From assembly GCA_041690295.1 (NCBI GenBank), contig JAWLHR010000004.1:85019-149018 (forward strand): DNA of 64,000 nt, read 5' to 3'. Numbering within the stretch: position 1 is the first letter of the stretch; every line of letters begins with the position of its first letter. The stretch is from Bdellovibrionales bacterium. GTDB lineage: Bacteria; Bdellovibrionota; Bdellovibrionia; Bdellovibrionales; UBA1609. Position numbers and translations under genes: made by a program. The notes under the pieces were generated by a model. The model was not told the origin of the DNA. It did not search any database and worked only from the letters and a program-made list of their open reading frames with translations. Positions 40,455 to 57,535 of the stretch are shown here, in pieces.

Positions 40455-43265
40455 GTGGCCAAGTGGATAATGGTTTTCGCCATTTCGATCCTGATCGCGA
40501 TCGTGGGCGCATTCTTTTTGGTCAACAGTGGAATTTTGCAGGCCCGGCTTCAGCAAGAACTCCAGACTCGCTGCCAATGTCAGGCGAAGCTGGGGCCCGT
40601 CCGCATTCCTTTTCAATGGCCATTGAGTGTCCGCGTGGGGCCGACCACGATCACCCGTGGTCCGATCAGCGCCGAGGCGCAGTGGCTGCACGTCGTGATC
40701 GCCAGTTTCACCGCGCCTTATGATATCCGAGTTCAACTCGTAAAACCTAAAGTAACGGTTCAACTGGAAGTCACCAAAATGAGTGAGGAGTCCGGGGGCG
40801 CGGCTCCATCGGCGGGTGCGCCATCCACGCGCTTTGTGCCGCCGCCACTGCGGCTTCGGGTGAAGATTTTGGACGGCGAGTTCAAGGCCAATGACATTTC
40901 GGTTCAAAAGCTGAATCTTGAATTCGCGCAGAAACTGCTCATGCGTTCGTCAGCCGAACTTCTGGTTTCGGCGCGGGTGCGGACCCCGTGGGTGCCCGGT
41001 GACTGGCCGGTCACCATTGATGGCAACGGACTCACGTTCGGCGAAGAGGTCATCAAAGCCACCTCGATCAAGGCCTGGGTCGCCGATCTGCATGCGAATA
41101 TTCAAGGGACGAGTTTGTTGGCCGAGGGACGGCACCGCTGGTTGGCCGAAATTCAAGTTCCTGATTTAAGTAAATTGCCCAAGCCGCCTTTTGAAATTCC
41201 CGCCAGCGACTGGCGCGGGGCCTTGCATGTGCAAGCCGAACTCATCAAGCCTGATGCCGCCACCGGATGGCAGGCGAATGGGCGGATCAATGCTTCGAAC
41301 GTCAGCGCCAACGTCAACTACCGTCAGGAAAAGACCTCGGTGATAGGGCCGGTGGCGGTTCAATTGCAAAGTCAGTTCAATTACACCGACAAAGGGATCG
41401 CCGTGCCCAAAGTCACCGGCGTGGTGGATTTAACTCAAGCACAGGTGGAGTCGGCCGGTGTTTTAACCAAGCCGGCGCATGTGCCGCTGCGCTTTGAAGT
41501 GGCCGCCGAAGGGCCGGGTGAAACTCTGACTCTAAAAAAATTCGATGCGCATTTTTGGCAGTTACACGCCAACGCCACGGGGCAACTCAATTTGAAAGCC
41601 CCTTACAGCGCGAACATCAGTTTCAATCTTCCGCTGACCGCTTTGAATGGATTGGAAACTTTGATCGTTCCGTTAAAAAGTTCACCGGTGAAAGGTCAAT
41701 TGGCGGCGCAAGCCGACTATGCCGGTCCGCTCACGGATCCGATGGCGGCGAAAATCAACCTGCGAAGTCTCCAGCTTAATAAGTTTTCCGCGGATGTGGC
41801 TTATGAGGTGCAGGATTCCATGCGTTTGCGCGGTCCCGTTTCAGTGAATGTGGACGCCGCGGGCGAACTCGACGCCGGCAAACCCAAATCCTTTCGCGCT
41901 TCGGGTCAGGCTGAGTTGAGCGGACTCTCGCTCGTGGCGGGTCCCTTTCGCAAGGAAGCCCGTCAGAAACTGGCCGCGGATTTCAAGTTGTCAACGCTCG
42001 GAGAATCTTTGCGCATTGATCATTTGAATGTGGCGGGCTTTCCGGGCGATGTGCGTCTTTGGGGTAAAATCGAACAGCCCACCAATCCCAAAGTGGATGT
42101 GGTCATTGTCGCCCGCGCGCTCAATCTCTCGGCTCTGCGCAAGGCGCTTGAAGAGTACAATGAACTTATCCCCAACGGAAACATCACGGGCCGTCTCGCG
42201 GTCGCCGGTTCGATGAAGCAGGGAAGTCCCTGGGCCGAATGGCCATTGAACGTCAGTGGCCAAATCAAGGCGGATCTGCCCGAGTATCATTTCGCGGCCG
42301 CTGCGCCCGCGGACAAGGCGGCGCCGGCTGAACCCGCCCCGCCGCAACCATTGGCCCAGGCTGGATTTTTACCCAAAGGGCCACTCACGGAAAAATTGAA
42401 TCTCGCTTTTGAAGCCACCATCGGTCTTGTTCAAAAGGATAACCTCACAGCCAAAGGCGCGAGCTTGAAGGGACGGGTGGCGCAAGGGCGCTTCAACGGT
42501 GAGGCGCAGGTGAAAGAAATCTTCGGCGGCCAATTCCGGGTGCAAAGCCTGCAGGTGCCGCTGCTCGAACCCAATGCATTAATCAAAGGGCAAGTGGGTT
42601 TTTCGCAAATCGTGATTCAAGATTTTCTTGATTTCGTTAAGCCCGAGTTGAAATCGATGGCCACGGGTCGAAGTGCCGGAACCATCAGTTTCTCCACCCG
42701 GCTTCCCAGCGCGCCCACGTTCATGGACGAACTCGAAGCGAACGGGAAATTGAACCTGAATCCCGTGACCTTCAATACGGTGAAAATCGGCGATCTGATC
42801 AATGAACTGATCGCCAAAATTCCCGGCGTGGATTTGCCGAAGGCCAAAGTGGAACCGTTAAAGGGCAAGGCCGCGGCGGGTTTCAGTTTATCCAAACAAG
42901 TGATCACGCTTTCGTCATTGAGCGCGCAGGATGAAGGCAACAGTGAATTGGATGTGAAAGGCACGATTTCTTTGGCCACGATGGAGAGTGATTTAAAGGG
43001 CAATTTTCATTGGGCGAACTCGCCGGTGAAGGGATGTTTGGCGGAAGGGAATGCGGATGCCAAAGGTCGGTTTGTGGTGCCTTTGGCGCTCCGCGGTTCC
43101 ATGCATCAGCCCAAGCTGTCATTGGTGTCGGATTTGGCGGGCAAACTCGCGGCGCGCGCCTTGGAATGCGAGAAAAACAAGCTGATCGAGAAAGCGAAGA
43201 AGGAAGGCGTTAAGAGCCTGCAGAAAGAAGCGGTAAAAGCGCTCAAAGGGATATTCGGTCAATGA
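40455..43265 (+). CDS. AsmA-like protein
   Basis: N-terminal TM anchor, 936 aa beta-rich, C-terminal VPLALRGSMHQPKL. Confidence 0.75.
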   Translation: MAKWIMVFAISILIAIVGAFFLVNSGILQARLQQELQTRCQCQAKLGPVRIPFQWPLSVRVGPTTITRGPISAEAQWLHVVIASFTAPYDIRVQLVKPKVTVQLEVTKMSEESGGAAPSAGAPSTRFVPPPLRLRVKILDGEFKANDISVQKLNLEFAQKLLMRSSAELLVSARVRTPWVPGDWPVTIDGNGLTFGEEVIKATSIKAWVADLHANIQGTSLLAEGRHRWLAEIQVPDLSKLPKPPFEIPASDWRGALHVQAELIKPDAATGWQANGRINASNVSANVNYRQEKTSVIGPVAVQLQSQFNYTDKGIAVPKVTGVVDLTQAQVESAGVLTKPAHVPLRFEVAAEGPGETLTLKKFDAHFWQLHANATGQLNLKAPYSANISFNLPLTALNGLETLIVPLKSSPVKGQLAAQADYAGPLTDPMAAKINLRSLQLNKFSADVAYEVQDSMRLRGPVSVNVDAAGELDAGKPKSFRASGQAELSGLSLVAGPFRKEARQKLAADFKLSTLGESLRIDHLNVAGFPGDVRLWGKIEQPTNPKVDVVIVARALNLSALRKALEEYNELIPNGNITGRLAVAGSMKQGSPWAEWPLNVSGQIKADLPEYHFAAAAPADKAAPAEPAPPQPLAQAGFLPKGPLTEKLNLAFEATIGLVQKDNLTAKGASLKGRVAQGRFNGEAQVKEIFGGQFRVQSLQVPLLEPNALIKGQVGFSQIVIQDFLDFVKPELKSMATGRSAGTISFSTRLPSAPTFMDELEANGKLNLNPVTFNTVKIGDLINELIAKIPGVDLPKAKVEPLKGKAAAGFSLSKQVITLSSLSAQDEGNSELDVKGTISLATMESDLKGNFHWANSPVKGCLAEGNADAKGRFVVPLALRGSMHQPKLSLVSDLAGKLAARALECEKNKLIEKAKKEGVKSLQKEAVKALKGIFGQ

Positions 43266-43313
43266 AAACCGGTTCTGGTTGACCGATCTCCACCCGTGTT
43301 TCAAAGTCGAACT

Positions 43314-44342
43314 ATGTCAGAGGCCGCGGATTTTTATCAAGACCATTTGGACCGGGTGAGCCGGAGCTTCGCGTTTTGCATTCGCCAGCTGCCGTCGCCG
43401 CTCAGGGAGTGGGTGGCTCTGAGTTATCTTCTTTGCCGGGTCTTGGACACGATTGAAGATGCCCCTTGGCCGGATCAGAAATCGCAGATGGAGGCGTTCG
43501 ATCAGTTTGATCGGGCGCTCAATGAACCGGGGTCGGATGTGCGATTTCAGCATTTGCTTCCCGATCAAATCACCGAAGGCGAAAAGAAATTGCTGGCCGA
43601 TAGCCCGCGACTGATCGGCGACTTGCACGATCTCGACCCCAAGGTACGAGGTGTGATTCGCCAATCCGTCTTGGTGATGTCGGCGGGAATGCAGTACTTC
43701 GCCGGTCAGCGGCGCAGCGGATCTTTGCACTTAAGGACACTATCCGAAGTCAATCAGTATTGTTTTTTCGTGGCGGGCATCGTGGGAGAACTATTGGCCA
43801 AACTCGTGGCGTTGGTGGAACCGCGATTCAAACTCTCCACGGGAGAGCTGGTTCGGGCCCACCACTTCGGTTTGTTTCTGCAAAAAGTGAATCTTCTTAA
43901 AGACCAAGTCGGCGATGAGCAAATGGGGCGCCATTTGATTCCTTCGCGGGTGGAAGTTGAAAACAGCGCGGAAGCGAACGCGCGATCGGCGTTGGATTTT
44001 TTGTTGGCCGTGCCATTGGATCAAATGGAGTTTCGGCGTTTTTGTGCGTGGTCACTTTACCTGGGGCTTGAGGCACTCTATGCGGCCCGCCGATCCACCG
44101 TTGAAAATCGAATTGTGAAGGTGGCGCGCGAGAGAATGAATGAGATTCTGTCCACCGTGGAGTCCTGCTTAAGTGATGATCAAAAATTGAAGTCGCTCTT
44201 TATGGCCGCCTGCGAGAAGCTGGGCTGGGCCGGTCAAACGGCACCGGCTCGGAGTCATGGAACCGTGCCGGAATGGCTTTTAAGCCGTTACCACGGACCC
44301 CTTGACGGAATGCACCTTGGCCAACTTGGAATAGCACATTGA
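43314..44342 (+). CDS. Squalene/phytoene synthase family protein
   Basis: VSRSFA, YLLCRVLDTIED, YCFFVAGIVG, FGLFLQKVNLLKD; start 43314 or 43296. Confidence 0.88.
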   Translation: MSEAADFYQDHLDRVSRSFAFCIRQLPSPLREWVALSYLLCRVLDTIEDAPWPDQKSQMEAFDQFDRALNEPGSDVRFQHLLPDQITEGEKKLLADSPRLIGDLHDLDPKVRGVIRQSVLVMSAGMQYFAGQRRSGSLHLRTLSEVNQYCFFVAGIVGELLAKLVALVEPRFKLSTGELVRAHHFGLFLQKVNLLKDQVGDEQMGRHLIPSRVEVENSAEANARSALDFLLAVPLDQMEFRRFCAWSLYLGLEALYAARRSTVENRIVKVARERMNEILSTVESCLSDDQKLKSLFMAACEKLGWAGQTAPARSHGTVPEWLLSRYHGPLDGMHLGQLGIAH

Positions 44343-44356
44343 CAATCATTTTCAAT
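44338..44356. promoter_or_regulatory. Fur box-like operator upstream of fur
   Basis: ATTGACAAT-C-ATTTTCAAT 9-1-9 imperfect inverted repeat matching TGATAATnATTATCA. Confidence 0.7.
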
Positions 44357-44376
44357 TAGAATAGCCAAATATCTCT

Positions 44377-44868
44377 ATGGAAACAGCCATACCGAGCCTT
44401 GCCAAGGGTAGTGTCCCCATTGAGCCAGAGAAGTTAATTCGTCGTGATCCGGTTGATCCGGCTAAATTTAAACGAATGATCCGGCAGATGGGGCTGAAGG
44501 TGACCCAACAGCGACTGGCCATCCTTGAATCATTGAGTTCAGGCCGGGCGCATGTGACAGCGCAGGAGGTCTTTGAAACCGTGAATGCGAAACACCCGGA
44601 AATCGGATTCGCCACGGTTTATCGTTTCTTGCGGAAAATGGCGGAGGCGAAGCTCGTGACTGAGGTTCGCATGGGTGGATTACCGGCGCGGTACGAATTA
44701 ACCCCGCGCCGCCACCACGATCACCTCACGTGTGTCCAATGCGGACAGATCGTGGAATTCGAATGTCCTTCCATCGAGTCCTTGCAAGAACAAGTGGCTG
44801 AGGAGCATAATTTCCGGCTGACTCATCATGTCCTCGAACTGTACGGCATTTGTCCACGCTGTCAGTAG
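44377..44868 (+). CDS. fur: Fur family transcriptional regulator
   Basis: [35 protein letters not shown]. Confidence 0.92.
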
Positions 44869-44877
44869 GAGAAGAAT

Positions 44878-47475
44878 TTGTCGGCCTTACCCGAAAATGA
44901 CGGCATCCTGGTCAAGGGCGCCCGCGAGCACAATTTAAAAAACATCGATGTTTTCATTCCCCGTGACAAAATTACGGTGATCACGGGTCTGAGCGGAAGC
45001 GGAAAATCATCCCTGGCCTTTGACACGATCTTCGCCGAAGGGCAAAGGCGGTTCATCGAAAGTTTGTCCACCTATGCCCGCCAGTTTCTTGAGCAAATGA
45101 AGAAACCGGAAGTGGACGCGATCGAAGGTTTGTCGCCGGCGGTGGCGATCGATCAAAAATCCATCAGTACCAACCCGCGCTCCACGGTGGGAACCGTGAC
45201 CGAAGTGTACGATTATTTGCGTTTACTTTTCGCCCGGGTCGGTACCGCTTATTGCCCCACTCACAATCTGCCGCTCGAAGGTCAATCCCCACAGGAAATC
45301 GTGGATTCCATCATGGCGATGAAGAAGGGCACTAAGTTTCTTCTGATCGCGCCGGTGATTCGCGGAAAGAAAGGGGAATTCTCGGCGGAATTTCAAAAAT
45401 GGGCGAAGAAGGGATTCACCCGCGCGCGCGTGGACGGTGAGTGGATGGAATTGGAAAACGCCACCAAGCTGGCTCGCCATAAAACCCACGACATCGATCT
45501 GCTGGTGGATCGCTTGATCGTGGAAGAACGATTCATCCCGAGGATTAAAGAAAGTTTGAATTTAAGCCTTTCGCTGGCCGGTGGCCTGGTGAAAATCGAG
45601 CCCCTGCAGAATGGGGAACCGCAGACTTACTCCATTCATCGCAGTTGTCCCAAGTGCGGTCACACCATGCCGGATTTGGAACCCCGGCTGTTCAGTTTCA
45701 ACAATCCGCGGGGCGCCTGTCCGACCTGTAGTGGCATCGGCACCTTGGATTTTGTGGAAGAGGAGCCGGAAAGTGACGAAGACGAAACGGAAGTGGATGA
45801 GTACGCTCTTACGGTTTGTCCGGATTGTCAGGGCGCGCGATTGAATGAGAATGCCCGTAATGTTCGAATCGGCGATTACAATATCGCCCAGGTGGCGGAA
45901 TTGCCGGCCACGGAGATTATCACCTGGATTGAAGGCGCGAATTTAAATCAGCGCCAAGCGCTGATCGGAGAGAAAATTCTTCGGCAAATTCTCTCGCGCG
46001 TGGAATACCTGATCCGGGTGGGCGCGGGATACCTGAGTTTGTCGCGACCCACACGAACACTTTCCGGCGGCGAGGCCCAGCGTATTCGTCTGGCTTCGCA
46101 GGTGGGATCGGGTTTGGTCGGGGTTTTGTACGTGCTTGATGAACCCAGTATCGGTCTTCATCCTCGCGATCACAAACGCTTACTGGAAATGATCCAGGAG
46201 ATTCGCGATCGGGGGAACACCGTTCTTATGGTCGAGCACGATGAAGAGACCATTCGCGTGGCGGATCACCTGATCGATATGGGACCGCGAGCCGGCCGTT
46301 TGGGCGGTGAAGTTTTGGCGGCGGGGACGCCAAAGGACATTATGCGGAATCCGGCTTCTTTGACCGGCCAGTATCTTTCCGGCCAAAAACAAATCGGCAT
46401 TCCCAGTCAGCGTCGAAGCGGAAACGGGAAGTGGCTGAGACTCGAAGGTGCTTCAGGTCACAACTTGAAGAACGTGGATTTCAAAATGCCGCTGGGAACG
46501 TTGGTGTCCGTAACCGGTGTGTCCGGTTCGGGAAAAAGCACACTGGTGATCGATACACTTTACCGGATCCTGGCTCGGGAATTTAACAAATCACCCCTTG
46601 AACCCGCGCCTTTCGCGAAAATCAGCGGTCTGGAACATATCGATAAGGTCATTGAAATCAATCAGCGGCCCATCGGTCGCACGCCGCGTTCGGTGCCCGC
46701 CACCTACGTGGGTCTTTTTCCCATGATAAGGGATCTTTTCGCGTCCTTGCCGGAATCGAAAATCCGCGGCTATCGCCCGGGACATTTCAGCTTCAATGTG
46801 AAAGGCGGCCGTTGCGAAGTTTGCCAGGGCGGCGGCCAAATCCGGGTGGAGATGCACTTTCTTTCCGATGTTTTTGTCCGCTGCGAAGCCTGTCAGGGGC
46901 AACGGTACAGCCGGGAGATTTTAAATATTCGTTATCGTGAAAAATCCATCGCGGATGTTCTGAATATGACAGTCGATGAAGCGATGGAGTTTTTCGCTCA
47001 TCACCGCCACATCCACCGCAAGCTGCAGACCCTGCACAGAGTGGGTTTGGACTACATCACGCTCGGGCAGAGTTCGACCACGCTTTCCGGTGGCGAAGCG
47101 CAAAGGGTGAAGCTTTCGCGCGAACTCTCCAAGCGCGACACGGGCCGGACCATTTACATTCTGGATGAGCCGACGACGGGGCTTCATTTCGAGGACGTGA
47201 AAAAGCTGGTTGATCTTCTGCAGGAGTTGGTGAACCAGGGGAATACGGTTTTGGTGATCGAACACCAACTGGATGTCATTAAAGCCAGCGACTACATCAT
47301 CGATCTTGGGCCCGAAGGGGGTGAGGCCGGCGGTCGCATCGTTGCCTGTGGCACGCCCGAGGAAGTGGCTCGCAACCCGCAAAGCATCACCGGTGAATTT
47401 TTGCGGCCGATGCTGAGGTCGTTCGCTCCCTCCACCGGCTCGAATTATCAACATGGCATGAAAGCCACGACCTAG
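44878..47475 (+). CDS. uvrA: Excinuclease ABC subunit A (insertion domain absent)
   Basis: GLSGSGKSS and GVSGSGKST Walker A, two LSGGEAQR signatures, Zn fingers. Confidence 0.96.
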
Positions 47476-47505
47476 AGAACTGCCCCACTAGCCTGCAGAA
47501 AATCC

Positions 47506-47521
47506 TGGCGAGAATTTTGCC
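47506..47521 (+). promoter_or_regulatory. Sigma54-type promoter motif inside IS copy 2
   Basis: TGGCGAGAATTTTGCC; GC lies 15 nt before ATG 47536. Confidence 0.6.
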
Positions 47522-47535
47522 TTAAACCACAGGGC

Positions 47536-48432
47536 ATGCGACCAAGCTGCCCCTATTGCCATTCATCCTCAGAGATGTCCGATCACCGGATGCGTATTCA
47601 AAAAGCCGGATTCTTCCGCCGAATCTCCGATGGAAAAAGAGTGCGAAGATTTTATTGTGTAAGCTGCAGTAGATACTTTTCTTATGCCACCTTTCACCCC
47701 TGCTTTAGGCAAAAAAAGCGTCACCTCAATCATCGTATCAACAAACTATTAGCTTCAAGCGTATCTCAGCGCCGAATCGCAAAATTACTCCATATCTCCC
47801 GAACCACAGTTGAACGAAAGTTTCTTTTTCTGGGCCAAAAAGCAGTCCATGAACTTGAACATCAAAACAATTCCAGTCCCCTGGCCACTGTTGTTGAATT
47901 TGATGAACTTGAAACCTTCGAGCACACAAAGTGTAAACCGCTTTCCGTTCCACTAGCCGTTGAATCAAAAACCAGAAGAATTTTAGCCTTCCAAGTGGCC
48001 CAGATGCCTGCCAAAGGAAAGCTCGCCCGCATTTCTCGAAAGAAATATGGCCCAAGACCAGACTTCAGGCCGAAAGCATTGAGTGAACTTTGTGAGAGTT
48101 TAAAGCCACTCACCACACCTGATGTGCAATTCAAATCCGATCAAAATCCAATGTATCCGGAAATTCTAAGGCGTCACTTTCCTTTAAATTCGCATGAGCG
48201 CTTTAAAGGGCAAAGGGGTTCGATTGTCGGACAGGGGGAGTTAAAGAAGATCCGTTTTGATCCACTTTTTAGTTTGAATCACACGTGTGCGATGCTTCGA
48301 GCCAATATCAATAGGCTAGTGCGGAAGACTTGGTGCACAACGAAAATTCCTAATAGATTGCGTCTTCATCTCGCCATCTATGCGGTTTATCACAACAATA
48401 TGATTCGAGCAGGACCATTAGCTGCAGGCTAG
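47536..48432 (+). CDS. IS1-like transposase
   Basis: 13 aa differences in 298 relative to copy 1 (manual count); stop codon lies within the right TIR. Confidence 0.85.
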   Translation: MRPSCPYCHSSSEMSDHRMRIQKAGFFRRISDGKRVRRFYCVSCSRYFSYATFHPCFRQKKRHLNHRINKLLASSVSQRRIAKLLHISRTTVERKFLFLGQKAVHELEHQNNSSPLATVVEFDELETFEHTKCKPLSVPLAVESKTRRILAFQVAQMPAKGKLARISRKKYGPRPDFRPKALSELCESLKPLTTPDVQFKSDQNPMYPEILRRHFPLNSHERFKGQRGSIVGQGELKKIRFDPLFSLNHTCAMLRANINRLVRKTWCTTKIPNRLRLHLAIYAVYHNNMIRAGPLAAG

Positions 48433-48443
48433 TGGGGCAGTTC

Positions 48444-49640
48444 TTAATCGACTCTAGGAAACGTCATGGTCACAATGGTTCCGTGATCGACTTTGCTTTG
48501 AATGGAGAAGGTTCCCCCCATATTTTCAACATTTGCACGGGCATTGAAGACTCCGATTCCTGAACCGCTATCGCCGGCCTGCTTACCATAACTGATGGGC
48601 TCTTTGCCGAGTCGGCGTAGAATTTCTTCGGGAATGCCTTTTCCTGTGTCGCTAATAATCACGGCAATGTCCCGTAAGGAAGATCGTAGCGCTACCGTAA
48701 TTTCGCCGGCCCCATTTAACGCTTCGACGGAATTGTTGATCAAATTGGAAAGTGATTGAGCATACATTTTCCTGTCTAACAGGCAAATGGCCTCTTTCGT
48801 ATCGCCCTGAACACTCGATGTTATCTTGATTTTGGAATCCGCGGGTAATGAAGCTCGCTTTTCTAAAACCAGCTCCTGAAGAAAATCCGCGACTTTTACC
48901 GGGGTTAGAAGGTTTTTTTGCTTAAGAGCCTGGCCGGAAAACGGTTTGCTTTGGGAAGGCATCTTATATTTGGCCAAGAGGTCGTTGGCGATTTCATTAA
49001 TTCGCTGAGCCGCGTTTTTCACGATGGATCGTTTTTCCTCGGGAAGGTCCTTAAGCGAGGCAATGACCATGTTCAGCGCGGACAAGGGAGATCGAATGTC
49101 ATGAGAAACTTGGGTCGCCAGAGCGTTGAAAGCCTCTTTTTGCTCAATGCTCAACGAAAGATTATAATCGGCGATGAGTCGAGCCCGCATGCGTTTTGAG
49201 AGAAAGTGCATCATAAATCCGCTGAGCAGGACGGCGACAATCGAAACGAACACAAAAAACGTGAGATCGAGGCCGAACTCGATGGAACCGATCTTTTCAC
49301 GAAAGGTCTCTGGTTGAGCGTCAATGACGAACGCGCTTTGTAAAAGCGGCTTCTTGTACAGAGGAGGGACGGTCAATGACTCTCGTCCGTCCGCGCTGAT
49401 ATAGCGAATGTAGGTGAAATGGGAGCTTACACTTAAACTGATCTCGATCATGGCGCTTCGATAGTCGCCCTTAATGAGATTCGGATGTGATTGTGTCACG
49501 GCGATTGACGCCAGTTGTTTTTTGAACGAATGAAAAAGCCAAAAGCCGGCGCCAACGCCCGAGAGCGTGAGACAAAGAAAGTAAATCCTGAGATTGAACT
49601 CCGCTTTCTTTATTGTTCTCTCGATGTTTTGAACGCTCAT
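48444..49640 (-). CDS. Membrane sensor histidine kinase
   Basis: Two TMs around a small periplasmic domain; QVSHDIRSPL H-box, NLINNSVEA N-box, DTGKGI, GSGIGV. Confidence 0.93.
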   Translation of the reverse strand: MSVQNIERTIKKAEFNLRIYFLCLTLSGVGAGFWLFHSFKKQLASIAVTQSHPNLIKGDYRSAMIEISLSVSSHFTYIRYISADGRESLTVPPLYKKPLLQSAFVIDAQPETFREKIGSIEFGLDLTFFVFVSIVAVLLSGFMMHFLSKRMRARLIADYNLSLSIEQKEAFNALATQVSHDIRSPLSALNMVIASLKDLPEEKRSIVKNAAQRINEIANDLLAKYKMPSQSKPFSGQALKQKNLLTPVKVADFLQELVLEKRASLPADSKIKITSSVQGDTKEAICLLDRKMYAQSLSNLINNSVEALNGAGEITVALRSSLRDIAVIISDTGKGIPEEILRRLGKEPISYGKQAGDSGSGIGVFNARANVENMGGTFSIQSKVDHGTIVTMTFPRVD

Positions 49641-49642
49641 GG

Positions 49643-50575
49643 CTAGCCTATAAAATGAGGAAGTGAATTGGGTTTGAAGCCGCAGTCGTATTCGATCAAA
49701 TCACGATGCGAGACCTGCACAACGCTCATCCGATCTCTTAGGTCTTCCAGGATGTCGGGAATTTTGAGTTTTCGAACATCGAAGTCGTCCAAACGGAACG
49801 GTCTTTTTTCACGGAAATCAGGTCCATCCATTTGAGCATCGGGAAAAAGGTGGCGGATTTGTCTGACGTAATCGGGATCCAAACCGAGGAGTCCATGGTG
49901 AATCGGTTGCCAGCTCGATAGCGATCGGAATTCGGTCAAACTTACGGCCTGGACGGGTCTCGATGAAAATAAGAGCGGAAAGTTTTGAACGCACTCGAGG
50001 ATCGCCTTTGTGGCAGCGCTCTCCCGGCTTTGGGCCGAGCCAAAACCGAAGATATATTTTTCGACTCCCTTGCCATCTGACCTTTTGGCGACGCAAATGA
50101 GAACTTCGCATTGTTGAAAAAGGCTCTCAGCTCGATAAATAGATACTGACACGTTTCGCTCGCGGCACTTATCCAGGAAAAAGCCAAAGGCCTTATCCGT
50201 CGGTTGCAAGTTTTGTAGCTTATATGGAATGCCATCATTGAAATGGGCGAGGACCGCATCGCGCTCGATGGCCTCGAGCGCCGCGTTGATAATGGCTTGG
50301 TCCTCATCGAAATGCGCGGCAATTCCACTCAAAGATTTCGATTTCGAACGATGCAAAGTGATTCGCTCAAACATCTCAATTAATGATTTGCCCACGGCGC
50401 GCTCGTCAGTTTCGGCCACGGATCGGCCGACGATCTCAACCCCGGAATCGGCACAAATGGCGCGAACGTCAAAATAACCCGGAAGCCAATCTTTTATATA
50501 AGTGAGATTCTCGAATCGAAGATTGATCTTTCGTTGAGCCAGCGCCCAATTTGTCAGTTCTTCGAAATTTTCCAT
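49643..50575 (-). CDS. YcaO-like protein (compact, stand-alone)
   Basis: KSLIEMFER, SLSGIAAH...ALEAIERDA, GFGS...KAILECVQ, C-terminal LPHFIG. Confidence 0.8.
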   Translation of the reverse strand: MENFEELTNWALAQRKINLRFENLTYIKDWLPGYFDVRAICADSGVEIVGRSVAETDERAVGKSLIEMFERITLHRSKSKSLSGIAAHFDEDQAIINAALEAIERDAVLAHFNDGIPYKLQNLQPTDKAFGFFLDKCRERNVSVSIYRAESLFQQCEVLICVAKRSDGKGVEKYIFGFGSAQSRESAATKAILECVQNFPLLFSSRPVQAVSLTEFRSLSSWQPIHHGLLGLDPDYVRQIRHLFPDAQMDGPDFREKRPFRLDDFDVRKLKIPDILEDLRDRMSVVQVSHRDLIEYDCGFKPNSLPHFIG

Positions 50576-52098
50576 AAAGGTGAATTGGGGAACAAAATCG
50601 AAAAGTCAGCACGCCATGGCTTGCGAATAACTGACACATAGGGGGTTCGTAAAATGGGAATGATCACCGGATTTAGCAAGCTTTCGAGGTGGAGCTGTTT
50701 AAGAGCTTGAAGTCGTTGTTCCTCGTCCGTCAAATAAAGGTATTTCTCGATCCACAACTCACGTTCCTGCTCCGTCGTGCCGAGAAAACCTGATTTTAAG
50801 CTGTTTATGACATTCGGAAGTTGCTCAAGAAACCCGGTATCCATGGAAACGATGTAAAGATGGGGATATTCAGGCGCATCAACATTTGAATCGTACGAGG
50901 GAAGCCTCTTTAGTTGTACGATCTGAATGCCCGGTAGAATTTCCTGAACGACAGGCCGCATGCGATCGAAGTTACGGGCAAAGAAGCCGAGCACAAGCTC
51001 TGATCCGTCCTCGTGTTTTGGGACCGGTGTTTTTCGCTTTTCGAGGACAGCGCTTAACTGCTCGTCCGTAAGACTTCCTTTCCCGCCCTCGGGAAAATAC
51101 TGGTAGGTCGATTGATAACCGGTTCTCCCGCCAAAAACGGATGCGAGTTGATTGGCCACGGCGTTTCCAACCGCCCATCGGCGATCTGATGACAATTGGA
51201 GACCTTTTTGCGTGAAAACCAAGAGCTCAAGCCGCACGGGGAGAGTTTGAAAAAGCGTGGCCTCATTTGAGTCGCGATATTTGTCGATACGCTCACTGAT
51301 GTCGGTTTGATCCAACGTACTGAGCAGATCGATTTGACCCGACTCAAATAGTTCAAGACCCGACTTCGAGGATTCGCGCGTGGGAATAAAAACCGGATTC
51401 TGTGGAATATCTTGCGAATAGAGGAAGTGCCGGGGGTTCGCGCGAAGCACAATGGCGCCGTCACTCCGGCGTTCTTTAACAGAGTAGACGCCGGACGTAA
51501 TGGATAGATTCAAAGATCTGAGATCGTTGGGATCCACCGAGCGCTTGGGGATTACGGCAAAATCGATGGAGCTGAAGTTTTCGAAGATGGTGAAGGTTTT
51601 CTTGCTCGGTTTTAATCTAAGCTTGCCGTCCACAATGCGGATTCCAGCACATTGATCGTTCACGGACTTGGGTTGGCTATCCGGACAAATCAGTTTCTTC
51701 AAATCGCCGTGCGTGCTTGATCCCAGCACAAGCAATCGCATCAATGAAAAGTAGGCGTCCTCGACTGTGATCTTTTGTCCCTCGGAATCAACTAAATCCT
51801 TGTTGATTTCAAATTCGATTTCATCATCGACCCAATAGAATTTCGACGCGGCTCCGGGAATGAGTCGGCCGAGATTGTCTCGCAACAAAAGGGGAATATA
51901 CAGATTCTCTAAAAAAGCATACTGTCCGGCGACTTGAACTCGAGCGGGATCGAACTCGGAAAGGGAAGTCTCATAAGGGAATCCAACTTTGAACTCGTGA
52001 ACATTTGAAGGGACGGTCATGAGATAACCTCTGAGGCTAAAAAAAATGGCACTCAGAATGAAGAGTGCCATTGTTGCTAGAAAAAACTTAATGTTCAT
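50554..52098 (-). CDS. Family-5 (OppA-like) extracellular solute-binding protein, orphan
   Basis: N-terminal anchor/signal; FDPA...ENLYIPLL...LIPGAA, ITVEDAYFSLMR, TSGVYSV, LRANP, FESGQIDL. Confidence 0.8.
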   Translation of the reverse strand: MNIKFFLATMALFILSAIFFSLRGYLMTVPSNVHEFKVGFPYETSLSEFDPARVQVAGQYAFLENLYIPLLLRDNLGRLIPGAASKFYWVDDEIEFEINKDLVDSEGQKITVEDAYFSLMRLLVLGSSTHGDLKKLICPDSQPKSVNDQCAGIRIVDGKLRLKPSKKTFTIFENFSSIDFAVIPKRSVDPNDLRSLNLSITSGVYSVKERRSDGAIVLRANPRHFLYSQDIPQNPVFIPTRESSKSGLELFESGQIDLLSTLDQTDISERIDKYRDSNEATLFQTLPVRLELLVFTQKGLQLSSDRRWAVGNAVANQLASVFGGRTGYQSTYQYFPEGGKGSLTDEQLSAVLEKRKTPVPKHEDGSELVLGFFARNFDRMRPVVQEILPGIQIVQLKRLPSYDSNVDAPEYPHLYIVSMDTGFLEQLPNVINSLKSGFLGTTEQERELWIEKYLYLTDEEQRLQALKQLHLESLLNPVIIPILRTPYVSVIRKPWRADFSILFPNSPLWKISKN

Positions 52099-52110
52099 TT
52101 GAAAGCGAAC

Positions 52111-52275
52111 TTACCTCTCTCCAATTCCAGGAGTATAGGTGCCGATTTCGTCTGGCCTATCCGTCAATAAATCCGCATTCTTGAGCTTCTTGATCACATT
52201 TCCATCCTGAGAATCAGCGGCATGTGCTGTAGCAAGTCCAAGGATCGTTCCCAGCAAAACTAACAATGCCTTCAT
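52111..52275 (-). CDS. 54-aa secreted small peptide (candidate signal/RiPP-like precursor)
   Basis: Below ORF-track cutoff. AGGAGGG SD 5 nt before ATG; MKALLVLLGTILGLATAHA|ADSQDGNVIKKLKNADLLTDRPDEIGTYTPGIGER; stop 12 nt before the SBP start. Confidence 0.8.
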   Translation of the reverse strand: MKALLVLLGTILGLATAHAADSQDGNVIKKLKNADLLTDRPDEIGTYTPGIGER

Positions 52276-52322
52276 TATGTCCCTCCTGCCAAACGATGAA
52301 CTGGTCAGATAATCTATAGTTA

Positions 52323-52338
52323 AGCAAAGCTAAGGCCA
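52323..52338 (-). promoter_or_regulatory. Sigma54-type promoter motif for the peptide-SBP-YcaO-HK operon
   Basis: TGGCCTTAGCTTTGCT, 47 nt upstream of the peptide ATG. Confidence 0.68.
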
Positions 52339-52461
52339 ACAAATCAACCGGCATTAAGCAAATGCTTGTCCGATAAAGGCTTCCAAGTTTTAGGATTTTG
52401 GTCTCAATTTGAAGACGAGTTAGCGATGTGTCGAATTCGATTATGAAAAAATAACAAGGTT

Positions 52462-53946
52462 TTAAAAATCTTTTCTCCCATCCAATTGGAGTTCATACTC
52501 GGTCACCTGTGTCGTCTTGGCTTCGCCTTTCCAGGTGTAGCTGTTGCCGTTCGGGGTGAACCCAAGTTTCCGCCAAAAACCGCTGACGTCGTTTTCTTCG
52601 GAAATTCCCAATTGGATTTTTTCGATTTTGTAGGTTCGTTTCAAGAAATCGGCGATCAGCTCAAAAGAACGGCGGCCCAATCCTTTACCGAAAACGTCCT
52701 CAACCAAGAGCAGCAGTCCGATGTAGGCCACACCCTCCTGGGGATGATGGACATGAACGTCGGCGGCGCCGATCGGTTTTCCTTCATGTTCGATGATCAT
52801 GAAGGTTTTCCGATAGGCGGCGACTTTTTCTTTCGGCTCCAGGGTCATCTCGGTCTTGACCGTGTGTTCGCTCGGCTCGCAGCCATCGACTTTGCGAAAA
52901 TACTCCGGAGATCTTTTGAAAATCTCAAGAACGGTGGCCGCATCCTCGGGCGTGGCGAAACGCACTCTGAGGTGATCGGGAGGACGAGCGGGCGGGCGAC
53001 CGTTGTGTGGGCCCATGGGTACATCCTTGGGCGCGTCCTCCCACAGCCAGCCGCGATCCTTGCCAACCAGGTTACGGAAGGTCTCCGTCGGATAGATGAA
53101 TTTATCGTCTTTTGTGCGGGAGTGATCTTCGCCGATGATAAGGTAAAGGAGATCCGAATCGGTTTCATTGATAATGGTGTGCGCGATGTTGGTCCCCGCC
53201 GGAAAAACCACGCCGGTGCCGGCCTTGGCCTCGCACGTGTACCCATTCATCCAGATCGTGGCCGTTCCGGAAAGGATGAAAACAAATTCTTCTTCGATTT
53301 TATGAGCATGGGGGAAGGAGGATCTATGCCCGGGAGCGAGTTTTTCCACGCCAATGCCGAGCGCGCTCAACCCCATTTTCTCATTTAAACGAGCCCAGTG
53401 CGTGAAGGACTCTGTATCGCCGGGATAGGTCCCGGGGCCTTCGAATTCAAGTCGATTGCAATCAATGATAAACGAGGGCCATTCGCGGCCTTTTTCCTCA
53501 GGAAGAACCGGGCCGGGTTTACCCTTGTGCGGTCCCAGCTTTCGTTTCGGAGCGGACTCCCACCATATGGGAGAGGTTTCCCGCTGCTCCGGATTCACGG
53601 GAAAAGCGCAAAGGTTTTCTCTCTTCGTTTGCTCGCCCGCCACAAGAAGACGGACCGGGCGATCCGTGTTGTTGATGAAACAATGTCCAATCCCGGTTCC
53701 CGCCGGAAATCCCACCGCGCACAAGGGATGAAGACTGTGGATGTAGCCGTCGATCCAGACATCCGGATGACCTTCCAGGACGAAGACGAACTCCTCTTCC
53801 AAACTTTCGGCATGAGGAAGCGAGGACTGGCTGCCCGGTTCCAAGATTTGGTGGTGGAGGCCCACCCGCCGGAATCCTCCAAGCTCGCTGAAGCTGAGCG
53901 CCTTGTCCGCCGGGACAACGTATTTTGTGTAAGGATTTTGATTCAT
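52462..53946 (-). CDS. Cupin-cupin-GNAT acetyltransferase fusion
   Basis: SLPHAESLEEEFVFVLEG...GHCFIN and SFPHAHKIEEEFVFILSG...AHTIIN; C-terminal YIGLLL...GKGLGR...FWRKLGF; start 53946 or 53967. Confidence 0.82.
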   Translation of the reverse strand: MNQNPYTKYVVPADKALSFSELGGFRRVGLHHQILEPGSQSSLPHAESLEEEFVFVLEGHPDVWIDGYIHSLHPLCAVGFPAGTGIGHCFINNTDRPVRLLVAGEQTKRENLCAFPVNPEQRETSPIWWESAPKRKLGPHKGKPGPVLPEEKGREWPSFIIDCNRLEFEGPGTYPGDTESFTHWARLNEKMGLSALGIGVEKLAPGHRSSFPHAHKIEEEFVFILSGTATIWMNGYTCEAKAGTGVVFPAGTNIAHTIINETDSDLLYLIIGEDHSRTKDDKFIYPTETFRNLVGKDRGWLWEDAPKDVPMGPHNGRPPARPPDHLRVRFATPEDAATVLEIFKRSPEYFRKVDGCEPSEHTVKTEMTLEPKEKVAAYRKTFMIIEHEGKPIGAADVHVHHPQEGVAYIGLLLLVEDVFGKGLGRRSFELIADFLKRTYKIEKIQLGISEENDVSGFWRKLGFTPNGNSYTWKGEAKTTQVTEYELQLDGRKDF

Positions 53947-54065
53947 AGGTGTCGAGTAAAAGCTCAAAATAAGACATTAAACAAGGGGAAAATCCCGGCT
54001 CGGCGTCTCAGCCTGAAACAGGCGCTTCTGGCCATGCCTCAAAACGGGATTGAACTGGAATTTTG

Positions 54066-54093
54066 TCAAGTTCGTTTGAACAGTCTCCGATTA
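54066..54093 (+). promoter_or_regulatory. Sigma28 (FliA)-like promoter motif
   Basis: TCAAG-N15-TCCGATTA upstream of the HD-GYP gene. Confidence 0.5.
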
Positions 54094-54121
54094 GTACGAT
54101 GTCTATTGGGGAGAATGTATA

Positions 54122-54778
54122 GTGGCATGGGACGATATCCCTGACTGGTCTGTGCAGGTCGCCGAAGAACTACTCGCACAAGTCAAAGAAAAAGACGCGT
54201 TTACATTTTTCCATTGTTGTCGTGTCGGACGTCGTTCGCGAAAGTTGGCGAAGGCCATCGGACTCAATGAATTCGAGCAGTCGGTGATCGAGTTCGCGGG
54301 ACTCTTTCACGATATCGGCAAAGCCAAAATTCCACTGGAAATCCTCACTAAACCCGGCCGCTTGAACGCGAGTGAAATCGAAGTCATGAAGTCCCATCCG
54401 GAACTGAGCGCCGATATGATCAAACATTTGAGCCACGTTCCTTTCTTCCGGTTCATGTTACCGGGTGTGCGTTATCATCACGAAAAAATCGAGGGATCCG
54501 GTTACCCCAACGGACTGGCCGGAGACGCGATTCCGCTCTTCGCCCGAATCATCGCCGTGGTGGACAGCTTCGATGCCATGACCCATGCGCGACCGTACCG
54601 CAACGCTCTTCCCGAGGAAAAAGCCATTAAAGAACTCAAGGATTTTTCCGGACGTCAATTCGACGCGAAGTTGGTGAACTACTTCCTCGAACTGATGCCT
54701 CATCTGAAACGTGAAGACGAGAAAAATCAGCACGACAAAGAAGTCGTGATCGCTCACCTCATCAAAAAAGCCGCTTAA
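54122..54778 (+). CDS. HD-GYP domain cyclic dinucleotide phosphodiesterase
   Basis: FHDIGK, HPELS, HHEKIEGSGYP, VVDSFDAMT..RPY. Confidence 0.9.
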   Translation: MAWDDIPDWSVQVAEELLAQVKEKDAFTFFHCCRVGRRSRKLAKAIGLNEFEQSVIEFAGLFHDIGKAKIPLEILTKPGRLNASEIEVMKSHPELSADMIKHLSHVPFFRFMLPGVRYHHEKIEGSGYPNGLAGDAIPLFARIIAVVDSFDAMTHARPYRNALPEEKAIKELKDFSGRQFDAKLVNYFLELMPHLKREDEKNQHDKEVVIAHLIKKAA

Positions 54779-55752
54779 TTCCCGCTCATCCAGCGCAAAA
54801 CGTCGGGCGTGTGATAACTGAAGATCATGGTCGCGCCCGCACGGCGAATGGAAAGCAGAATCTCATGGACCGCGGCTTTTTCATCGATCCAACCGTTTTG
54901 CGCGGACGCTTTGACCATGGCGTATTCGCCGCTCACATTGTAAGCCGCGATCGGTAAATCGGAAAGTTCACGAAGACGGCGAATGATATCCAGATAACTG
55001 AGCGCGGGTTTAACCAATAAAACATCGGCGCCTTCGTCCTGGTCCAGGCGAGCCTCACGTTCGGCTTCCAAGGCGTTGGCCGGGTTCATTTGATAGGTTT
55101 TCTTATCACCAAATCGGGGCGCGCTCCCCAGCGCATCACGAAAGGGTCCGTAAAACGACGACGCGTACTTCGCGGTGTACGAAATGATTCCGGTCTCGGA
55201 AAATCCGGCTTCATCCAATTGCTCCCGGATGTAACCCACGCGGCCGTCCATCATATCGCTGGGAGCCACGAAATCCGCTCCGGCTTCGGCCTGAACGCGG
55301 GCCTGCTCGCCGAGAACAAGCAAAGTTTCATCATTTAAAATTTTTCCGTTCTTAACGATGCCATCATGTCCCTCGGAGGAATAGGGGTCGAGGGCCACGT
55401 CCGTGATCACGTTCAAGTGGGGGAACTCGGATTTGATCTTACGAACGGCGCGGGGAATGAGGCCATCAGGATTGGCGGCCTCACTGGCCTTGGCGTTTTT
55501 CAAATTGTCGGCGATGCGCGGAAAAAGCGCCAGAGCGCCAAGCCCCATGGCGCTCAGACGGTCGCAGTCGCGAAGAAGCTCATCCACGCTCACGCAGTCG
55601 CAGCCGGGAAGGGATTTGATCGGCTCGCGTCCGTTTTCTTCTTTGATGAACGCCGGCCAGACCAAATTTTTCGCGGTGAGTGAGGTTTCTTCGGTCATTT
55701 CGCGAATGGCGGCGTTTTTTCGTAACCGGCGGGGACGTTCAACAATTTTCAT
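54775..55752 (-). CDS. hemB: Porphobilinogen synthase
   Basis: RPRRLR, DVALDPYSSEGHDG, APSDMMDGR, YASSFYGPFR, VKPA, AYNVSGEY. Confidence 0.97.
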   Translation of the reverse strand: MKIVERPRRLRKNAAIREMTEETSLTAKNLVWPAFIKEENGREPIKSLPGCDCVSVDELLRDCDRLSAMGLGALALFPRIADNLKNAKASEAANPDGLIPRAVRKIKSEFPHLNVITDVALDPYSSEGHDGIVKNGKILNDETLLVLGEQARVQAEAGADFVAPSDMMDGRVGYIREQLDEAGFSETGIISYTAKYASSFYGPFRDALGSAPRFGDKKTYQMNPANALEAEREARLDQDEGADVLLVKPALSYLDIIRRLRELSDLPIAAYNVSGEYAMVKASAQNGWIDEKAAVHEILLSIRRAGATMIFSYHTPDVLRWMSGN

Positions 55753-56345
55753 GATCGACTCCAGATTTGAGGTAAGTGCAGGCCCAGTTCTTTTAATGCT
55801 TTCGTCAACGCGATTAAAGGCAATCCTTTAATGGCGCTCGGATCCGAACATTCCATGGACTCAATCAGAGCGAGTCCGGCTTTCTCGATCTTAATGGCTC
55901 CGGCGCAGTCATAGGGTTCATCTTGTTTGAGATAGCTCACGATTTCACCCTCGCTCAGTTGGCGCAATTTTATCAGGGTGATTTCCGTGTGGGTCACGCT
56001 TTTCAGGGGGCTGATCACCGCAAGCGACGTGATCAAACGATGGTTTTTGCCTTGAAACCTTTTGAGTTGTTCAAGGGCTTTCTCGAAGGTCCCCGGTTTG
56101 TCCAAACGTTCACCTTCAACTTCGGCGATTTGATCACTGCCGATAATGATGGCCTTGGGAAATTTCCCGCGCAGGCTTTCGGCTTTTTTAAGGGCTAAAA
56201 AACGCGTGAGTTCCACCAAGTTGGCGGGACCTTGAGACTTCAATTCGGCTTCATTGACGAGCGGATTCTCGACTTGAAATGAAATTCCGAAATTCTCGAG
56301 CAGCGATCTTCGATAAGGGGAACGGCTGGCCAGTATGACTTGCAT
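55749..56345 (-). CDS. maf: Maf family nucleoside triphosphate pyrophosphatase (YceF-like)
   Basis: LASRSPYRR, GSDQ, KP, DCAG, GLPL. Confidence 0.92.
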   Translation of the reverse strand: MQVILASRSPYRRSLLENFGISFQVENPLVNEAELKSQGPANLVELTRFLALKKAESLRGKFPKAIIIGSDQIAEVEGERLDKPGTFEKALEQLKRFQGKNHRLITSLAVISPLKSVTHTEITLIKLRQLSEGEIVSYLKQDEPYDCAGAIKIEKAGLALIESMECSDPSAIKGLPLIALTKALKELGLHLPQIWSRS

Positions 56346-56426
56346 GCCGAAACCGTAATCAAAAAGCCAAAGCGTGTCAAAATTTACTCTTTTGACCGTC
56401 GATCAGGTCCGTGACAACTTGAAATT

Positions 56427-57479
56427 ATGTCCTACGTTCATGATCTGAGCCCTTTCGCGATTCAGTTTACTGAAAATTTCGGCATACGCTGGTACGGGCT
56501 GGCCTATCTCGCGGGATTCATCTGCGGTTATTACGCGATTCTGTTAAAAACCCGCTGGGGGCAGACCCAGTTCAAAGAGGCGCAAGTCGCGGACTTCATC
56601 ACCTATGTGGCGATCGGCGTGCTGGCCGGCGGCCGCCTAGGTTATTGTCTGTTCTATGCGCCCGAGCTGTTCACCTCGATCGATGGGAATTTTCCCTACT
56701 GGAGCGTTCTCAAGGTGAACGAGGGCGGCATGGCCAGTCACGGCGGGATCTTCGGCGTGATGGTTGTTTGTTGGCTCTATGCCCGCGCCAATAAAATGTC
56801 TTTCCTTCATTGTCTGGATCTCACGGTTTTCGGCGGTTCCTTGGGATTTTTCTTCGGTCGGCTGGCGAATTTCGTGAACGGGGAACTCTTTGGTCGCGAA
56901 GCGCCTTCGGGATTCGCTTGGGCGGTGAAGTTTCCCCAGGAAATGGTGCTTTGGCTGCAACGGGAATTTCACCGGTTGAGGGATTTAGGGCCGGCGGTGG
57001 AACAACTCAAAACCCTGTCCGAGCCGAATGGAACCGTGGATTTGACGGCGTCACGATGGCAGCTTTGGCTTGATAACTATGCCACTGATCCAGTGGCCCG
57101 CAATCGGGTGAGTGCCGTGATCGATTCCTTGATCCACCAGGTGCAGGCGGGGAATGAAGCGGTGAAAAACGCTTTGGCTCCGGTCTTAACCGCGCGTTAT
57201 CCATCACAGCTCTTTCAAGCGGTGCTCGAGGGACTGTTGGTCTTTATTATCCTGTGCTGGATTTGGCGAAAGCCGCAAAAACCTGGCGTGGTCGGGGGAT
57301 GGTTCGGCGTTCTTTACTGTTTGGCGAGGATCATCGGCGAGCAGTTCCGCATGCCTGATGCGCACATCGGATTTCAATGGCTGGGGCTGACTCGTGGGCA
57401 GTGGCTCAGCGTGGCTTTCTTCACCTTCGCCCTTGGCTATCTGATTGTGGCTTACCGCCGCGACACCAAGAAAATGTAG
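56427..57479 (+). CDS. lgt: Prolipoprotein diacylglyceryl transferase
   Basis: IRWYGL, GGRLGYCLFY, GGMASHGG, GRLANFVNGELFGR, YPSQL, LTRGQWLS. Confidence 0.95.
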   Translation: MSYVHDLSPFAIQFTENFGIRWYGLAYLAGFICGYYAILLKTRWGQTQFKEAQVADFITYVAIGVLAGGRLGYCLFYAPELFTSIDGNFPYWSVLKVNEGGMASHGGIFGVMVVCWLYARANKMSFLHCLDLTVFGGSLGFFFGRLANFVNGELFGREAPSGFAWAVKFPQEMVLWLQREFHRLRDLGPAVEQLKTLSEPNGTVDLTASRWQLWLDNYATDPVARNRVSAVIDSLIHQVQAGNEAVKNALAPVLTARYPSQLFQAVLEGLLVFIILCWIWRKPQKPGVVGGWFGVLYCLARIIGEQFRMPDAHIGFQWLGLTRGQWLSVAFFTFALGYLIVAYRRDTKKM

Positions 57480-57531
57480 GCCGTTCCTTTTCAGGATGCG
57501 TGGCATCCTGAAAAGGAACGGCCTACATTTT
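57471..57531. repeat. Perfect 29-bp inverted repeat (3-nt loop), bidirectional terminator / REP-doublet-like
   Basis: AAAATGTAGGCCGTTCCTTTTCAGGATGC-GTG-GCATCCTGAAAAGGAACGGCCTACATTTT between convergent lgt and nrdB. Confidence 0.9.
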
Positions 57532-57535
57532 GAGA

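Follow-up and report, generated by a model that had tools for sequence, protein, structure and literature searches.

What could unite a small exported peptide, an orphan binding protein, a YcaO enzyme and a histidine kinase that are encoded side by side in a Bdellovibrionales genome? The question is raised by the window analysed here, a stretch of 64,000 nucleotides (nt) of contig JAWLHR010000004.1 (assembly GCA_041690295.1), in which four minus-strand genes form a compact cassette. On balance, the sequence comparisons presented below favour the answer that a modified mini-protein, made by the cell itself, is sensed through a solute-binding protein (SBP) and the kinase. The features concerned are given in window coordinates, with protein lengths in amino acids (aa):

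52323..52338, minus strand: σ54 (-24/-12)-type site TGGCCTTAGCTTTGCT, 63 nt 5' of the precursor start, 2 mismatches
52282..52287, minus strand: Shine-Dalgarno sequence AGGAGG of the precursor gene, read from the sequence
52111..52275, minus strand: 54-aa precursor open reading frame (ORF), without any Pfam match
52132..52134, minus strand: codon of Thr48, the predicted methyloxazoline site, at the target-column position of the family
50554..52098, minus strand: 514-aa family-5 SBP, SBP_bac_5 at 40.1 bits in Pfam
49643..50575, minus strand: stand-alone YcaO of 310 aa, Pfam PF02624 at 57.1 bits against a cut-off of 25.7
48444..49640, minus strand: histidine kinase of 398 aa, HisKA at 31.1 bits plus HATPase_c at 68
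47476..48444, plus strand: multi-copy insertion sequence (IS), flank only, with a 298-aa transposase at 47536-48432

An earlier interpretation made from the letters of the DNA (the sequence-only reading) had described the four genes as tightly linked, and recomputation returned the same places and spacings (12 nt, a 22-nt overlap and 2 nt). The strong Shine-Dalgarno sequence, the compact YcaO and an OppA-like SBP without permease or ATPase were likewise recovered: SBP, YcaO and kinase all score above their Pfam cut-offs, and no ATP-binding cassette (ABC) permease gene was matched in window 42000-58500. Two details stand in part, since the second transmembrane segment of the kinase is clear by hydropathy and the first lies below the threshold of 1.6 and was read by eye, as was the Sec signal of the 54-aa ORF (MK, a hydrophobic core, A-H-A and then A-D). 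Overlooked at that time was a fifth gene of the family, encoding a σ54-dependent response regulator, which is present neither in this copy nor in the source genome. This genome is 99.9% complete and contains one YcaO gene as well as rpoN.

Conservation of the gene order was borne out. The locus scan was based on SBP alignments because the YcaO alignment was too divergent. The 100 regions fetched around the best YcaO matches contained 101 YcaO ORFs, 80 of them with full flanks, and SBP and kinase accompany YcaO in 70 of these 80 loci (52 in the order SBP-YcaO-kinase, 18 as YcaO-SBP-kinase, 10 other). Pooling with 72 SBP-seeded loci gave 141 distinct YcaOs, and the trio was found in 93 of the 103 with full flanks. 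A σ54-dependent response regulator, verified by a domain check, adjoins 49 of the 70 trio loci. The window YcaO itself was matched in 17 of 101 related genomes and the YcaO profile in 155 of 401 genomes of the phylum, where weak matches may represent other YcaOs. The named homologues belong to Bdellovibrionota, and the label 'predator' given in the sequence-only reading rests on those names. The cassette belongs to a widespread and apparently undescribed gene set in this phylum. Three further cassette loci (L220, L160 and L218) lie on contigs labelled Elusimicrobiota and Chlamydiae, reflecting either transfer or mis-binning.

Genomes with several cassettes usually carry different ones: of the 15 multi-copy groups listed, 14 have cores that differ among the cassettes of one genome. 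Furthermore, 26 of 45 type-A loci with five genes have VirB3/VirB4-like genes within the flanks fetched, as compared with 1 of 14 loci without the regulator. The σ54 motif upstream of the window copy is present, but it was rejected as significant by itself, as 29 such matches were found in the window and 29.6 were expected. It gains support because an equivalent site with 1 mismatch also lies 63 nt 5' of the start in the relative L151, and because such sites are rare upstream of ORFs, occurring within 100 nt in only 57 of 2734 ORFs of the genome. Among 49 five-gene cassettes, sites were detected upstream of 12, with 1.0 expected.

The precursor carries much of the argument. In the window it comprises a Sec-type signal (residues 1-19, by eye), a recognition helix at about 27-38 and the core G45-T-Y-T48-P-G, with no Cys at all. 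The small ORF is kept at homologous loci: of 130 SBP-adjacent loci, 99 passed a strict filter for a signal-peptide ORF directly before the SBP gene; the other 31 were dropped before counting owing to contig edges, miscalled starts or lack of a candidate. Common to these precursors are a hydrophobic N-terminal part, a helix motif containing Leu (69/79) and Gly (62/79), and a single target residue towards the C-terminus. YcaO enzymes cyclodehydrate Cys, Ser and Thr residues, and the target column of the 99 precursors contains Cys in 85, Ser or Thr in 10, another residue in 3 and a gap in 1. Ser/Thr in 10 of 13, at a background of 0.20, gives p = 2e-5, a value overstated by the non-independence of kin. 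On the SBP tree (93 rows, 9 of them Ser/Thr), well-supported branches force six separate changes, among them those within the closely related sister pairs L040/L106 and L114/L121. These swaps led to the rejection of a role specific to Cys, for instance a disulfide.

Thr48 falls on this column. In a gap-free, leave-one-out scan with a helix matrix from Cys-type rows, both the window peptide and that of L151 have Thr at +17, counted from the conserved Leu of the helix, the position at which Cys stands in 51 of 71 Cys-type rows, and the full-length alignment agrees. L151 is the nearest relative (SBP 65% identical), with the core G-T-W-T-P-G versus G-T-Y-T-P-G. Over the last 33 aligned codons of the two, 9 residues are identical and 7 of these use different codons, including all five identical residues of G-T-x-T-P-G, a pattern of protein-level selection which refutes, as far as sequence can, that the ORF is untranslated. 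On this evidence, the window peptide and L151 are Thr-type members, in which Thr replaces the usual Cys of the family. Separately, the precursor at L123:3621-3974 contains tandem G-G-R-T repeats resembling the L078 core G-G-R-C and is possibly a multi-core Thr-type precursor.

The YcaO is compatible with such chemistry. Its model (pLDDT 87.6, the predicted local confidence score) matches archaeal YcaOs, LynD, McbD and TruD, with a Foldseek E-value of 1e-10 to 6ci7, and the protein lacks a signal or transmembrane segment. The Mg-ATP residues E67, E70, R71, E101, E104, R105 and E194 are kept in 52-54 of 54 rows; E101 aligns with McbD E167 and Q197 with McbD Q264. The enzyme ends in LPHFIG and the family tail reads PH(P/F)xG, with one clade being tailless; the PxPxP motif named for YcaO C-termini in the excerpted text of bioRxiv 2025.07.11.664356 is not matched literally. 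For McbD, an excerpt of PMC6395948 states that Thr148 and the C-terminal Pro are needed for full activity and that the enzyme minus its last residue still processes Cys only. All 46 YcaOs without the PH tail pair with Cys cores except that of L151, which is cut by an IS, and 9 of the 10 Ser/Thr cores pair with enzymes that have the tail, the exception again being L151. This pairing, drawn mostly from one clade, is a weak echo of the McbD deletion.

The sequence-only reading had allowed for a mass change of -18 or +16 Da. An azoline (-18 Da) is favoured over a thioamide (+16 Da) because the target column is Cys/Ser/Thr and the genome is without TfuA (no PF07812 match, the positive control being matched), so that the thioamide was rejected as the principal interpretation and the azoline is the best-supported predicted product. 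Neither SagB (TIGR03605) nor PqqD (PF05402) was matched in the source genome, and no E1-like or RiPP recognition element (RRE) partner is present in the cassette, E1/ThiF not having been searched genome-wide (RiPP: a peptide made by the ribosome and modified post-translationally).

Mini-YcaOs also occur in other settings. At L118:4525-7612, the gene directly after the mini-YcaO encodes a SagB dehydrogenase (above cut-off), PqqD and an ORF with a Peptidase_S74 domain lie upstream, and sensor genes are absent; YcaO with SagB and PqqD is the standard azole arrangement. A separate candidate RiPP cluster (L119:5077-7936, L127:5125-7981 and L128) has a mini-YcaO after a 134-137-aa ORF and before a glycosyltransferase; this ORF ends Thr/Ser-rich, with a Cys/Ser swap between copies. 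In L071, L072, L187 and L191, the order is activator-YcaO-kinase with neither precursor nor SBP; the SBP genes of the family are found separately, downstream of σ54 sites of their own, and in L191 two of them lie in tandem.

Of the putative receptor components, the SBP (model pLDDT 93.9) shows a hydrophobic helix at its N-terminus (residues 2-27) and a fold of the OppA/MppA/NikA/AapF kind at 13-17% identity, with no clear nearest ligand class. The kinase combines two hydrophobic segments, a periplasmic domain of about 90 aa, H180 within HDIRSPL and HATPase_c, and has no receiver. At five-gene type-A loci, kinases mostly measure 508-560 aa and include a C-terminal receiver-like part. Truncation of the window kinase by the IS was rejected, as its two closest homologues (387 and 423 aa) likewise end without a receiver; judging by these, the short kinase is native to the window lineage. 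The sequence-only reading had proposed a test of co-variation between peptide and SBP. Over 46 non-redundant loci, similarity in the peptide helix correlates better with that in the SBP (r 0.52) than with that in YcaO (0.26) or the catalytic part of the kinase (0.19), and the periplasmic domain of the kinase correlates better with the SBP (0.71) than with the catalytic domain of the same kinase (0.53). Shared descent confounds these values, as does the length of the SBP, the longest marker. They offer a hint of co-variation among peptide, SBP and kinase.

Four further kinases of the source genome group with the window kinase in one clade and have almost the same H-box. Three of these four are accompanied by an orphan SBP_bac_5 protein (contigs C2, C14 and C19), and one more pair is truncated by the end of C3. 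The C19 locus (L223, G000:C19:21762-25920, minus strand) keeps the layout of the cassette but with a different modifier: where the cassette has YcaO and peptide, it encodes a radical SAM/SPASM enzyme and an exported protein of 101 aa whose last residue is Trp, alongside the orphan SBP, a 123-aa ORF and the same-clade kinase. At G000:C2:28440-35206 (L224) and C14:72669-76823 (L225), orphan SBP_bac_5, a major facilitator superfamily transporter and a same-clade kinase are combined; the C2 locus adds a methyltransferase and a B12 radical SAM gene, and the C14 kinase is apparently split into two ORFs. Finally, at G000:C4:30576-34341, the neighbours of a same-clade kinase are an exported ORF of 82 aa with a terminal Trp and two hydrolase-like ORFs, with no SBP.

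From these elements, the following sequence of events may be proposed. The σ54 promoter would drive the four genes as one operon. In the cytoplasm, the mini-YcaO is predicted, from residue conservation, to cyclodehydrate one residue at the expense of ATP (Thr48 here, Cys in most relatives), yielding an azoline with a loss of 18 Da. The precursor would then leave by Sec and lose residues 1-19, for which bufferins offer a precedent: these combine a Sec-signal RiPP precursor, cytoplasmic heterocycle formation and a periplasmic mini-protein product, according to an excerpt of PMC11626156. Because no protease gene is found in the cassette, the product is probably the whole 35-aa mini-protein. The membrane-anchored SBP would bind it, helix included, and act as co-receptor on the small periplasmic domain of the kinase rather than feeding a transporter. 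The kinase would in turn signal to a σ54 activator, encoded by the adjacent gene in five-gene relatives, where a feedback loop, often beside conjugation genes, could result. Since the source genome is without a cognate activator, its kinase would have to use a host regulator, perhaps one shared with the same-clade kinases, and we infer that several of these may converge on a single regulator. The signal could be intraperiplasmic, of contact range, or shared among cells within one prey.

A broader proposal is put forward tentatively, as a possibility short of an even chance: a phylum-wide, so far undescribed class of signalling RiPPs, namely Sec-exported mini-proteins with one azoline installed by YcaO, read by an SBP co-receptor, a kinase and a σ54 activator, and governing the conjugative transfer of mobile elements in Bdellovibrionota. 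Such a class would be modular, with the modifier swapped (e.g., radical SAM/SPASM at C19) and same-clade orphan kinases feeding a shared host regulator. If true, thiazoline, oxazoline and methyloxazoline would be alternative signal types within it.

Several results weigh against the sensing of a self-made, modified mini-protein, in addition to the confounding of the co-variation. The Cys-type precursor profile scores the window peptide at E = 10 (rank 10 of 2413 small ORFs), and homology of this peptide therefore rests on position, spacing and one relative. When the two Thr-type peptides were profiled against 1.84 billion representatives, the full-length matches were those two only, with no third Thr-type relative, and the ESM Atlas returned nothing above 0.79. 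In the enzyme, Leu82 occupies the position of McbD Thr148, where 48 of 54 relatives have Ser/Thr, and all 8 rows of the window YcaO lineage are without an equivalent of this Thr. L071 and L072 retain activator, YcaO and kinase but have neither precursor nor SBP in between, so that YcaO can persist where no substrate is encoded next to it. In a quick tree of 32 of the 78 cassette activators plus 12 activators of the source genome, 31 of the 32 cassette activators sampled group in one clade (support 99), and none of the other 12 falls within it. No good σ54 site was found in 37 of the 49 five-gene cassettes scanned, whose starts may be miscalled. VirB3/VirB4 had no match in the source genome, and location of the cassette on a conjugative element there was rejected accordingly. 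Lastly, the SBP fold is equally close to metal-chelate binders (NikA, CntA) and peptide binders.

This last point bears on a rather unlikely alternative, in which the azoline mini-protein is a periplasmic chelator, the SBP binds the metal-peptide and the kinase reports metal or envelope status, with no message passed between cells. The closest SBP folds include NikA and CntA-staphylopine, a product of 35-90 aa would probably not cross the outer membrane with ease, and bufferins are Sec-exported Cys-heterocycle RiPP metallophores in the excerpted account of PMC11626156. A chelator of this kind is difficult to reconcile with a single modifiable residue that is swappable to Ser/Thr and has variable flanks, with several cassettes of different cores per genome, and with the frequent linkage to conjugation genes.

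The points on activator and enzyme lend themselves to another explanation, that the family signals and the window copy is decaying or rewired, its activator lost, its YcaO weakened and an IS beside it. We consider this unlikely. The genome is indeed without cognate activator and conjugation genes, Leu82 is in place and the YcaO of the nearest relative is IS-cut; yet every reading frame is intact, short kinases with no activator next to them are seen again at many loci and among the closest homologues, and the peptide core diverges synonymously. Moreover, the changes in YcaO are lineage-wide, with Ser83 present in 7 of 8 rows, Q197 kept and the tail mostly PHFIG.

Quite improbable is a third scenario, which takes the small protein as an unmodified accessory subunit of an SBP-kinase receptor for an outside ligand (e.g., prey-derived peptides) and lets YcaO act elsewhere or tune the kinase. 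It would leave the restriction to Cys/Ser/Thr at a fixed spacing unexplained, despite accounting for L071/L072, which keep YcaO, activator and kinase without an adjoining precursor, for a helix that co-varies with the SBP and not with YcaO, and for other pairs of SBP and same-clade kinase without YcaO in the genome. Delivery of the peptide to a distant Opp/Dpp permease, for import signalling or nutrition and with the kinase a mere neighbour, is highly improbable: six permease pairs do exist elsewhere in the genome, any of which could in principle be used, and the SBP5 protein AapF binds a signalling molecule according to the titles of PDB entries 7kz8/7kz9, but the kinase adjoins in 70 of 80 loci and a permease in none of the fetched loci, the periplasmic domain of the kinase tracks the SBP, and the pairs inspected (C1, C10) each have their own SBP.

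How does a self-made, SBP-sensed mini-protein compare with known systems? With McbD (microcin B17), TruD/LynD and MusD, the window enzyme shares the YcaO fold, acidic Mg-ATP ligands, predicted Cys/Ser/Thr targets and a Pro-containing C-terminal tail. Unlike these azol(in)e YcaOs, it measures only about 310 aa, is without an E1-like/RRE partner in the cassette and a dehydrogenase in cassette or genome, ends in PHFIG instead of PxPxP, has Leu at the Thr148 position, and is predicted to act on one target in a Sec-exported precursor. The archaeal thioamide YcaO (6ci7, 6pe3) is the best match in structure and sequence and likewise compact and stand-alone; unlike in TfuA-YcaO systems, the source genome is without TfuA and the target column points to side-chain cyclisation. 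Bufferins, as excerpted from PMC11626156, resemble the cassette in the Sec-signal precursor, the proposed cytoplasmic heterocycle and the mini-protein, and differ in using MNIO/DUF2063 enzymes (multinuclear non-heme iron-dependent oxidases) on several Cys, whereas here YcaO, one Cys/Ser/Thr, SBP and kinase are found and MNIO/DUF2063 genes are absent from the cassette.

Modified-peptide signalling via kinases is known mainly from Gram-positive bacteria. The agr, ComQXPA and NisRK loci similarly unite precursor, modifier, kinase and regulator within a single autoregulated locus, with variable peptide types, but are Gram-positive, involve direct kinase binding and use other chemistries, in contrast to the Gram-negative phylum of the cassette, with YcaO, a proposed SBP co-receptor and σ54. 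An orphan binding protein beside a sensor kinase is likewise seen in LuxP/LuxQ, TorT/TorS, ChvE/VirA and XylFII/LytS, whose ligands are small molecules, whose SBPs belong to other families and which encode no peptide or modifier. PrgZ/cCF10 of Enterococcus and RapI-PhrI of ICEBs1 share the peptide signal, the family-5 SBP (PrgZ) and, with relatives of the window copy, linkage to transfer genes; their peptides are unmodified and taken up by import, their receptors cytoplasmic, and the window copy is without transfer genes.

The cassette is therefore not classed as a linear azol(in)e-containing peptide or thiazole/oxazole-modified microcin locus (no partner or dehydrogenase), a TfuA-YcaO system, a bufferin locus or an Opp/Dpp/Nik ABC importer (no adjoining permease or ATPase). 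The activator typical of a peptide quorum-sensing two-component system adjoins 49 of 70 relatives and is absent from the window copy. By analogy, the cassette appears to combine the workings of a modified-peptide quorum system with those of a binding-protein-assisted kinase. No description of the cassette was found in the literature searched, which did not extend to subscription journals and supplements, nor any YcaO product acting as a signal or family-5 SBP reading a self-made peptide for a kinase. New with this window are the Cys-free Thr-type member and the Cys/Ser/Thr target-column test. A stand-alone YcaO of 310 aa for which a single target can be defined would be useful for enzymology and peptide engineering, and the cassette provides a testable handle on communication and gene-transfer control in Bdellovibrio-like bacteria.

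Concerning the flanks, the cassette is AT-richer than the backbone, as had been noted, to a real and modest degree: its GC content is 0.479 versus 0.525 +/- 0.019 for 725 genome blocks of 3.9 kb, placing it in the lowest 2.3%. It also abuts the IS, whose end meets the stop codon of the kinase gene. The IS fills precisely the interval from the stop codon of uvrA to that of the kinase gene, with no target duplication evident; it has 28-nt inverted repeats and ends AGAACTGCCCC, matches the IS1 and ISL3 models below cut-off only, and is represented by about six full and many partial copies in the genome. It is a multi-copy resident element outside the cassette. A DNA search with the upstream neighbour gene returned no syntenic locus for the insertion site. 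Near-identical pieces of the cassette (0-2 differences) were detected in DNA contigs of four runs from four studies, one run possibly being the source sample; none of these contigs spans the cassette or shows an empty-site joint, and no RNA dataset was listed as containing the stretch. Directly upstream of the cassette, and not beside related ones, the window encodes a protein of 501 aa in which two cupin domains are fused with a GNAT acetyltransferase (52462-53967, minus strand).

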